From Escherichia coli (GTDB lineage: Bacteria; Pseudomonadota; Gammaproteobacteria; Enterobacterales; Enterobacteriaceae), in the NCBI RefSeq assembly GCF_013122565.1, contig NZ_CP053258.1: a stretch of DNA of 64,000 nucleotides. The stretch is one strand, 5' to 3'. The position numbers and the translations under genes are program-made. Positions 13,683 to 14,510 of this stretch are shown here, piece after piece. Below the pieces are notes generated by a model. That model searched no databases. It saw only the letters and a list, made by a program, of their open reading frames with translations, and had not been told where the DNA came from. Numbering within the stretch: position 1 is the stretch's first letter; the number at the start of each line of letters is the position of its first letter.

Positions 13683-14510
13683 TTAGCGAAGTGTTTTTGG
13701 GGTCATTACCCGACGAGCGCCAACATAGTGGCGCTGCCAGTAGTCTTCACTGAGAGAAGTGATTTGAATTTCCTGACCTGTGCGCGGTGACTGAATAAAT
13801 TTGCCGTTGCCGACATACACGCCGACATGATCGGCTGTACCGCGTCCCTGAGTACGGAAGAAGACTAGGTCGCCGTTTTTCAGTTCACTACGTTCGATTG
13901 GCGCTGCATCGCGCAGGTGATACATTTCATTCGCCGTACGCGGAATACGAATTTTCACCAAATCTTTATAAGCGTAATAAACCAGGCCGCTGCAATCAAA
14001 ACCGGTACGCGGTGAGCTGCCGCCCCAACGATATGGCTTACCAATTTGCTGCATCAGTTTATTCATTGCCACTTTCGTGGCTTTTTGCACCTTCGCTTTG
14101 TGCGCGTCGGCAAGGGTTCCTGACGCGGCATTTTTGACTTTCACACAATGCGATTTATAGCCCTTACGTTTGGTACACTTTTCGGTAAAGCTGGCTGAGG
14201 CCGTTTTATTGACGGCGTGTTTGCTGCGAGTTTTGGCGTTTTTAGAAGCGGTAATGGAAGATTTTTTAACGGAAGAAGCGGTTTTGCTTTTGGTCGTACT
14301 TTTACTGGCGGCTTTTTTCGCTGTTTTCTGGCTGGCTTTTTGGGTCTTTTTGGTGGTTGCCGTGCTTTTCTTTTTATCTGCTTTTTTGGTGATATGAGTG
14401 GTAGCAGAACTCTCCCTGGCTTGCTTTGAAGCATGGGCCATAGGCGTTAAAGGCAGGGTGGTAAAAAGTAAAGCACAGAGCGTGATCGAAATACGGTTTA
14501 TCCGCGCCAC
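13683..14510 (-). CDS. mepH: NlpC/P60-family peptidoglycan endopeptidase MepH (YdhO)
   Basis: ORF track 275 aa; signal peptide, Lys/Thr/Ser-rich linker, C-terminal NlpC/P60 domain with catalytic Cys (FDCSGLVYY); start codon choice uncertain by a few codons. Confidence 0.85.
   Translation of the reverse strand: MARINRISITLCALLFTTLPLTPMAHASKQARESSATTHITKKADKKKSTATTKKTQKASQKTAKKAASKSTTKSKTASSVKKSSITASKNAKTRSKHAVNKTASASFTEKCTKRKGYKSHCVKVKNAASGTLADAHKAKVQKATKVAMNKLMQQIGKPYRWGGSSPRTGFDCSGLVYYAYKDLVKIRIPRTANEMYHLRDAAPIERSELKNGDLVFFRTQGRGTADHVGVYVGNGKFIQSPRTGQEIQITSLSEDYWQRHYVGARRVMTPKTLR

Follow-up and report, generated by a model that had tools for sequence, protein, structure and literature searches.

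A probably disordered, polycationic spacer in the Escherichia coli endopeptidase MepH, its length alleles and the spurious reading frames that overlap it

Within a 64,000-nucleotide stretch of Escherichia coli DNA (the window), one short region is open in three reading frames besides that of the gene that occupies it, which raises the questions of what kind of protein segment the region encodes and whether any of the additional frames is itself a gene. We conclude that the region very probably encodes a disordered, strongly basic spacer of the cell wall endopeptidase MepH, with the signal peptide on one side and, on the other, a Cys hairpin that stands before the NlpC/P60 domain, and that the three extra frames are compositional artefacts, of lengths expected from the amino acid composition. 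The feature is real but ordinary, it belongs to a known and annotated gene, and much of it is already known and will not surprise specialists; our additions are small, namely a split of about 34% to 65% between two length alleles and their probable origin by slippage, the Cys hairpin, the conservation of charge, and a route from a spurious frame to a mis-called protein. The three extra frames, all taken from the ORF list, are:

14141 to 14434, minus strand: spurious ORF of 97 aa, +1 relative to mepH; it starts with ATG and its translation is P/K/R-rich
14170 to 14397, plus strand: spurious antisense ORF of 75 aa
14217 to 14429, plus strand: spurious antisense ORF of 70 aa

Sequence comparisons securely assign the host gene as mepH, and the name given by the first-pass annotation is borne out by the RefSeq annotation, by a shared gene neighbourhood and by a match to the Pfam family PF00877. 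Megablast with the mepH ORF as query showed that, of 5,426 complete E. coli genomes, 5,425 have a single copy, with an identity to mepH of 97-99.4% (5,423 genomes), and all full-length matches listed carried the RefSeq name 'peptidoglycan DD-endopeptidase MepH'; at least 1000 public contigs carry the exact 275-aa protein under the name MepH. In the window, mepH is flanked by the Fe-superoxide dismutase gene (sodB, 12974-13555, minus strand) and the monothiol glutaredoxin gene (grxD, 14845-15192, plus strand), the latter followed in the ORF list by the gene for a 1538-aa Lhr helicase; two fetched genome records have the same order, lhr-grxD-mepH-sodB-ydhP. A scan of Rfam at the gathering threshold found no RNA family within or close to mepH.

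13683 to 14510, minus strand: mepH (ydhO) coding sequence, 275 aa, GTG start, stop included (ORF list and RefSeq match)
13710 to 14042, minus strand: NlpC/P60 (C40) catalytic domain, aa 157-267 (Pfam PF00877)
13650 to 13679, minus strand: terminator-like hairpin, a 13-bp stem and then a T run, directly 3' of the mepH stop (consensus scan only)

The catalytic domain matches the full NLPC_P60 profile (PF00877, positions 1-105) with E = 8e-37 and 125.8 bits against a cut-off of 23, and D172-C173-S174-G175 and H228 are invariant across 89 diverse homologues. Foldseek superposed the modelled catalytic module on MepS, LytE and Acd24020 with TMt of 0.8-0.9 and rmsd of 1.7-3 A. On profile score, conserved Cys and His and predicted papain-like fold alike, the protein is a member of the NlpC/P60 family (PF00877, MEROPS C40). 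MepH is a DD-endopeptidase that acts on 4-3 cross-links and is redundant with MepS and MepM (PMC11789061, PMC11211486).

The part of the protein that precedes this domain is built of several distinct pieces, of which the first two are:

14430 to 14510, minus strand: signal peptide MARINRISITLCALLFTTLPLTPMAHA, aa 1-27 (read from the sequence; length invariant in homologues)
14187 to 14429, minus strand: low-complexity polycationic segment, aa 28-108 (composition, outlier rank, AlphaFold, dN/dS)

Residues 1-27 have a basic n-region (R3 and R6), a hydrophobic core ISITLCALLFTTLPL and an A-H-A motif followed by S28, and would thus form a Sec/SPase I signal peptide, with A-x-A at -3/-1 and no lipobox. 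The segment that follows contains 21 Lys, 16 Ser, 14 Ala and 14 Thr among its 81 residues (80% K/T/S/A), with 23 basic and 2 acidic residues for a net charge of +21; hydrophobic residues number 8 of 98 over aa 28-125. The window has 68 stop-to-stop frames that reach 150 aa or more, and in a ranking of these the segment was the top K/T/S/A outlier, its best 81-aa window reaching a fraction of 0.81 against a median of 0.33, so that the bias exceeds the window background by far. The first-pass annotation had described a run of about 90 residues dominated by these amino acids, located between the signal peptide and the catalytic domain and assigned to 14141-14434. The strong bias and the location both hold, but the run is nearer 81 aa, and 14141-14434 are not the bounds of the linker but exactly those of one spurious ORF; across that span (aa 26-124) K/T/S/A falls to 74%, and the stretch between aa 108 and the domain holds a conserved Cys hairpin and a helix.

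We examined structure predictions for this region, which the first-pass annotation had proposed as a check, taking low AlphaFold confidence as no more than a proxy for disorder. In the model that we used, built from an alignment of 89 diverse sequences, aa 1-106 have no DSSP elements and a pLDDT of 48-62, compared to 92-98 for the domain (aa 141-275); the linker is thus given no secondary structure and low confidence. A first AlphaFold run with 59 close homologues was poor throughout (mean pLDDT 49) and was excluded from the argument on disorder. Sequence and fold matches in the PDB begin only at about aa 126-155. The PDB sequence search returned nothing before about aa 126, save for LytE, which gave a single low-complexity alignment starting at aa 57, and the fold matches span just 123-149 aligned columns, which corresponds to the catalytic module in size; neither solved structures nor fold homologues cover the first 125-130 aa. 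Two elements stand between the low-complexity segment and the domain:

14130 to 14186, minus strand: predicted Cys-x9-Cys beta-hairpin TEKCTKRKGYKSHCVKVKN, aa 109-127 (conservation island and AlphaFold)
14043 to 14114, minus strand: predicted N-terminal helix of the catalytic module, aa 133-156 (AlphaFold helix 133-153, pLDDT 86-98)

The hairpin forms an island of conservation among 87 distant homologues; C122 is invariant and C112, K111, T113, R115, K116 and G117 are each at least 90% conserved, and AlphaFold places strands at 107-113 and 121-127 with a pLDDT of about 70-77. Given the periplasmic location of the protein, we infer that Cys112 and Cys122 form a disulfide. No hairpin is present in the more distant MepH-like proteins that retain the basic tail, and one rare natural allele (P0049) lacks it entirely.

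Conservation elsewhere in the N-terminal region is of a different kind. The signal peptide is 27 aa long in 106 of 106 homologues and the domain 119 aa in 104 of 106, and the region from signal peptide to helix (equivalent to aa 28-125) can be as short as 35 aa or as long as 113 aa in the same set, with 88-104 aa being common. Averaged over the 87 homologues that are less than 85% identical overall, identity to the MepH of the window is 0.45 in the linker region but 0.91 in the domain, and dN/dS is 0.20-0.52 in the low-complexity part compared to 0.018-0.047 in the domain, such that non-synonymous change proceeds 5-20 times faster in the segment than in the catalytic domain. The charge is nevertheless kept: in 97 homologues K+R make up 23-32% and D+E 1-7%, with a net charge of +15 to +23, and distant cluster representatives mostly consist of a signal peptide and a basic low-complexity tail of 50-180 aa. 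At the level of these alignments, this shows selection on composition (predicted disorder and a net charge of about +20), not on sequence or exact length. Taken together, the bias, the few hydrophobic residues and the fast evolution with kept composition are what a disordered low-complexity linker is expected to display, and aa 28-108 are predicted to be one.

What such a spacer might do has to be considered against the regulation of MepH, one of three redundantly essential wall-expanding endopeptidases, whose level is set by NlpI-Prc/BipP proteolysis. Cells that lack both mepS and mepM need MepH for growth in LB. NlpI-Prc degrades MepH (PMC8996183, PMC11789061) and BipP blocks this degradation via NlpI, and a significant share of the proteolysis of MepH does not depend on NlpI (PMC11789061). 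A literature search found no study that addresses MepH/YdhO's disordered N-terminal stretch; the one relevant hit, the paper on MepS and NlpI, names MepH in passing. If the segment is a basic spacer, as we favour, the cationic tail would keep soluble MepH near the anionic sacculus or envelope, and/or might provide an unfolded handle for the NlpI-Prc protease system.

We considered that the N-terminal region might instead be a sequence-specific regulatory module that docks MepH on NlpI, Prc or another partner, an explanation that we regard as possible but unlikely. Its elements would be Ser28-x-Gln-Ala, the KKK at 46-48 and the Cys112/Cys122 hairpin, with the low-complexity part merely connecting them, and this assignment of elements is equally tentative. 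The presence of conservation islands within the region, the prediction of the hairpin with moderate AlphaFold confidence, the degradation of MepH by NlpI-Prc and its block by BipP through NlpI (PMC8996183, PMC11789061), and the folding of the MepS disordered region on NlpI (PMC11211486) are all what this explanation leads one to expect. However, the hairpin is missing both from the distant proteins with a basic tail and from P0049, and a significant share of MepH turnover does not involve NlpI (PMC11789061). We also note that a docking module would be compatible with what we conclude below about the artefactual ORFs and the length polymorphism.

MepS (Spr) offers what is probably the nearest functional analogue of the MepH tail, its own intrinsically disordered region. 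MepS and MepH are paralogues, both of them NlpC/P60 DD-endopeptidases from the redundant group MepS/MepM/MepH; MepS carries a disordered segment ahead of its catalytic domain, and both proteins are NlpI-Prc substrates (PMC8996183). The disordered N-terminus of MepS is the NlpI-binding element and acts via L24 and F31, which are hydrophobic (PMC11211486). In contrast to this tail of about 37 aa, which is lipid-anchored, is not lysine-rich and folds on NlpI through L24 and F31, the MepH tail has about 81 aa, is soluble, consists to 80% of K/T/S/A with its net charge of +21, and leads into a Cys hairpin absent from MepS. Since the MepH tail is almost without hydrophobic residues, the analogy may not hold. 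A second comparison is with the extracytoplasmic disordered regions of B. subtilis PBP1 and RsgI, which work when scrambled, such that composition carries the function (PMC9732909). These too are disordered tails on wall enzymes or sensors with poor sequence conservation and kept composition, as the evolutionary pattern of MepH suggests for its own tail, but they belong to a Gram-positive wall, are C-terminal on membrane proteins, and have as their proposed role the probing of peptidoglycan gaps.

A more elaborate form of the spacer idea is that the polycationic tail and the Cys112-Cys122 hairpin jointly set the location and the lifetime of MepH; we consider this speculative and improbable as a whole. 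Charge would hold soluble MepH on the sacculus, the hairpin and tail would be read by NlpI-Prc and hence be subject to BipP, and it is composition and length that would carry the function. If so, the common 4-aa indel and the rarer deletions described below would be natural tuning alleles of wall-hydrolase dosage. In any event, the targeting and degradation of MepH can be approached by simple means through its kept charge, its Cys hairpin and the length alleles found in nature.

The first-pass annotation had also suggested that the linker would vary in length between strains and named its invariance as the observation that would speak against this. We compared linker length across strains, and it is not invariant: a 12-bp indel splits the complete genomes into two classes, and rarer deletions occur besides.

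14332 to 14343, minus strand: 12-bp indel encoding QKAS, present here and absent in K-12 (alignments, probes)
14274 to 14282 and 14244 to 14252, minus strand: two 9-bp direct repeats ACCGCTTCT that bound a 30-bp deletion (DNA check)

MepH is 275 aa in the window and 271 aa in K-12, and the whole difference is this one 12-bp block, which adjoins an imperfect direct copy of itself at 14320-14331. A 52-nt probe for the long allele matched 1,846 of the 5,426 complete E. coli genomes (about 34%), and a 40-nt probe for the short junction matched 3,521 (about 65%), 3,513 of them with at least 99% identity; roughly 60 complete genomes were matched by neither probe, and length classes beyond 271 and 275 aa may be found among these. 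The long form is present in E. albertii, and Citrobacter, Salmonella and Kosakonia also carry residues at the indel positions; thus, the short K-12 form is the derived one, a deletion, and the outgroups suggest that it originated once and was spread by recombination. The two copies in strain 042 have a 9-bp direct repeat in common, CCAGAAAAC, and slippage between them gives exactly the K-12 sequence. From this we infer that the 12-bp deletion, found in about two thirds of E. coli, arose by replication slippage between direct repeats, and this deletion would be the main product of a process in which slippage between short direct repeats yields in-frame length variants.

The rarer alleles extend this pattern. 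In a collection of 5.8 billion proteins, rare E. coli alleles have in-frame deletions of 9-61 aa, all of them in the N-terminal region. Draft assemblies are where such larger deletions occur. Two of the rare deletions were examined at the DNA level: one is a 30-bp in-frame deletion between the ACCGCTTCT repeats (P0010, 261 aa), and the other a 183-bp deletion at a 5-bp microhomology that removes aa 63-123. These deletions of 30-183 bp may likewise be due to direct-repeat slippage. Within the linker itself, a 71-nt probe over aa 72-94 found no length variant among 5,424 complete genomes.

The region is not a tandem-repeat array, a possibility that we rejected because TRF reported only weak rows (period 24, 2.3 copies, score 58, at 14299-14351; period 13, score 38); it is non-periodic low complexity. 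The number of repeated 8-mers in the linker equals that obtained when codon order is shuffled (P = 0.62) and exceeds that obtained with mononucleotide shuffles (P = 0.02), and the direct repeats of 7-9 bp and the A5-A6 runs are present because codon use in the linker is repetitive. The nearest analogue for the polymorphism among strains is the Thr-Asn repeat of Listeria monocytogenes p60 (Iap), where a low-complexity linker also precedes an NlpC/P60 domain and also differs in length between strains by short-repeat slippage (PMC3917698). The Iap repeat, however, is a true tandem ACAAAT array of 5 versus 7 copies that lies between LysM/SH3 modules (PMC3917698), whereas MepH has no regular array, only scattered direct repeats of 7-9 bp, and its bias is cationic. 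The NCBIfam model for p60 (PRK13914) aligns weakly over aa 26-268 of MepH, far below its cut-off.

In addition to the in-frame alleles, we encountered frameshifted ones, and one of these bears on how the extra ORFs enter databases.

14262 to 14267, minus strand: A6 run (GTT AAA AAA TCT), the A6-to-A7 frameshift site (variant DNA)

A cluster of 101 sequences (P0034, 246 aa, labelled "putative exported hydrolase") begins with the peptide MLQSKPGRV of the +1 ORF and then enters the MepH domain. The corresponding DNA has A7 in place of A6 at 14262-14267, which truncates the real MepH, and as a consequence gene callers take the ATG of the spurious ORF and fuse the +1 frame to the catalytic domain. 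We considered that the A-runs might make mepH a phase-variable contingency locus toggled by frameshifting. Assemblies with the A7 allele are listed in 39 blocks of the protein collection and stem from several sequencing runs, and all of the frameshift variants that we observed fall in A-runs. However, the same 71-nt probe found A7 in none of the 5,424 complete genomes, so that on and off frames are not both common; the longest A-run in mepH is 6 nt, which is short for a phase-variable homopolymer tract, and the strongest TRF row has only 2.3 copies and a score of 58. The other frameshifted variants, which enter the alternative frame and come back out of it, have the appearance of errors. P0007 combines three 1-nt deletions, each in a different A-run, on a contig of 3.4 kb, and in the source assembly of P0013 lhr and grxD are fragmented as well; because these two resemble homopolymer errors of sequencing or assembly, we rejected them as real alleles, and we took the frameshift of P0025 for the same kind of error, a judgement made from the protein alignment only. 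With short runs, no A7 in complete genomes and error-like variants, phase variation is very improbable and we rejected it.

We return to the three extra ORFs, which the first-pass annotation had called artefacts of composition on both strands. The spacer is written almost exclusively in codons for Lys (AAA/AAG), Thr (ACN), Ser and Ala (GCN), and for this reason the coding strand of the linker is rich in A (41-42%) and poor in T (13-15%). A stop codon requires a T on the sense strand and an A on the antisense strand. Stops are thus rare in the +1 frame and two of the antisense frames, and long meaningless ORFs result; stop density per 100 codons is 1.0-2.1 in the three open frames compared to 2.5-9.3 in the domain half. 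We held the MepH protein fixed and redrew its codons 2000 times from the codon usage of the window itself. An open run at least as long as that observed appeared in 25% of the resamplings for the +1 frame (P = 0.25), and the two long antisense frames gave P = 0.54 and 0.61, values that are not matched to individual ORFs. Moreover, a Pfam search of the three ORFs gave no match, and the RefSeq annotation of the two fetched records has no gene other than mepH across the region.

Comparison with orthologues from E. albertii, Citrobacter, Salmonella, Kosakonia and Leclercia further separates composition from coding. The +1 frame runs without a stop for 97-101 codons in E. coli, E. albertii and C. 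amalonaticus but is reduced to 46-58 codons in the Salmonella, Kosakonia and Leclercia orthologues, with no ATG-initiated +1 ORF remaining in Kosakonia and Leclercia, and the extents and start codons of the antisense ORFs differ among genera. Thus, long open frames recur in orthologues because the composition recurs, but the frames, extents and starts are not the same. On all of these counts (resampling, domains, annotation and conservation) the description of these ORFs as artefacts stands.

One observation might still be taken to favour an overlapping gene, for which the same-strand +1 ORF at 14141-14434 is the best candidate: the synonymous divergence of mepH from E. albertii is lower where this ORF overlaps, with dS of 0.21 in the 5' third of the gene (the linker) versus 0.74. 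The low-divergence tract, however, continues upstream through the signal peptide and the intergenic region into grxD and is absent in comparisons more distant than E. albertii; because it runs on in this way, the reduced dS appears to be regional. That any of the extra ORFs is a real overlapping gene is extremely improbable, and we rejected it, for although the +1 ORF has an ATG start that gene callers use in frameshifted alleles, a basic proline-rich product and a long frame in three species, its length is predicted from MepH composition, it is cut short or lost in other genera, it has no domain match and no annotation, and its ATG derives from the His-Ala codons at the signal-peptidase site.

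These results recommend caution in annotation, as low-complexity coding stretches breed long ORFs in other frames, and when a homopolymer frameshift interrupts the true frame, gene callers join the spurious ORF to a real domain, P0034 being an example. The window contains a second such stretch, in an RnfC/RsxC-like gene (39807-41933, minus strand) whose C-terminal repeats also yield spurious ORFs on both strands, in this case of 403, 200 and 183 aa. The RsxC-like repeats differ from the MepH run, which is non-periodic, in being true 32-aa tandem units that are rich in A/K/E/Q and probably helical.

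Between the disordered tail of MepH and its catalytic domain lies a conserved Cys-x9-Cys motif (aa 109-127), which is predicted to fold as a beta-hairpin. We found that the hairpin cysteines are invariant or near-invariant across Enterobacteriaceae, and that the motif is not found in more distant MepH-like proteins; the two cysteines probably form a disulfide in the periplasm. Within the catalytic domain, MepH residue 240 (13791-13793) is Gln, in the sequence KFIQSPR, and is invariant in close homologues; its position is one that we take to correspond to the third catalytic residue of MepS, His131. 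Scanning for consensus sequences alone gave candidate expression signals on both sides of the gene, listed here with the motif.

14130-14186, conserved Cys-x9-Cys motif of mepH, predicted beta-hairpin
13650-13679, minus strand, terminator-like hairpin (13-bp stem and T run) immediately 3' of the mepH stop
14571-14600, minus strand, sigma-70-like TTAACT-18-TAGAAT, about 60 nt upstream of the mepH GTG

Two alleles alter this region of mepH. A natural E. coli allele of 210 aa (locus L014, GCA_012683985.1, gene at 1001-1633) is missing 183 bp, corresponding to aa 63-123 in K-12 numbering, such that most of the tail and the entire Cys hairpin are taken out; the deletion junction has a 5-bp microhomology. 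The other allele is a frameshift, an A6-to-A7 change at the equivalent of 14262-14267 (loci L003-L006, gene at 1501-2241), which is called by gene finders as a 246-aa "putative exported hydrolase" with its start inside the spurious +1 ORF. This A7 allele was seen in many draft and Logan assemblies and in 0 of 5,424 complete RefSeq genomes; it probably represents a real loss-of-function clone.

We also compared the mepH 5' third, the intergenic region and grxD (about 14140-15190) with the E. albertii locus, L008. Over grxD, the intergenic region and the initial 370 nt of mepH, nucleotide identity was 93-98%; in the catalytic-domain half it was 82-90%, with dS values of 0.21 in the 5' part of mepH and 0.74 in the catalytic-domain half. 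Relative to K-12, mepH has seven SNPs, none of them within the first 108 codons. The high identity to E. albertii over grxD and the mepH 5' third may reflect either a recombination tract or an effect of codon usage.

The spurious-ORF artefact of the kind seen in mepH is stronger in an RnfC/RsxC-like gene, whose C-terminus carries 4-5 tandem repeat units of about 32 aa each and yields spurious ORFs in other frames. The repeat count probably differs between strains.

39807-41933, minus strand, RnfC/RsxC-like ORF, 708 aa
39702-40913, plus strand, overlapping ORF, 403 aa
39883-40485, plus strand, overlapping ORF, 200 aa
39818-40369, minus strand, overlapping ORF, 183 aa

Elsewhere in the window, RNA genes and Rfam matches were as follows.

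11106-11496, plus strand, STnc550 (enterobacterial sRNA family), full-length Rfam match, 396 bits
2360-2433, minus strand, tRNA gene
2441-2514, minus strand, tRNA gene
2233-2395, plus strand, HPnc0260 "antisense RNA", Rfam match

The STnc550 match immediately adjoins the ORF at 10080-11105, and the HPnc0260 match overlaps one of the two tRNA genes on the opposite strand.
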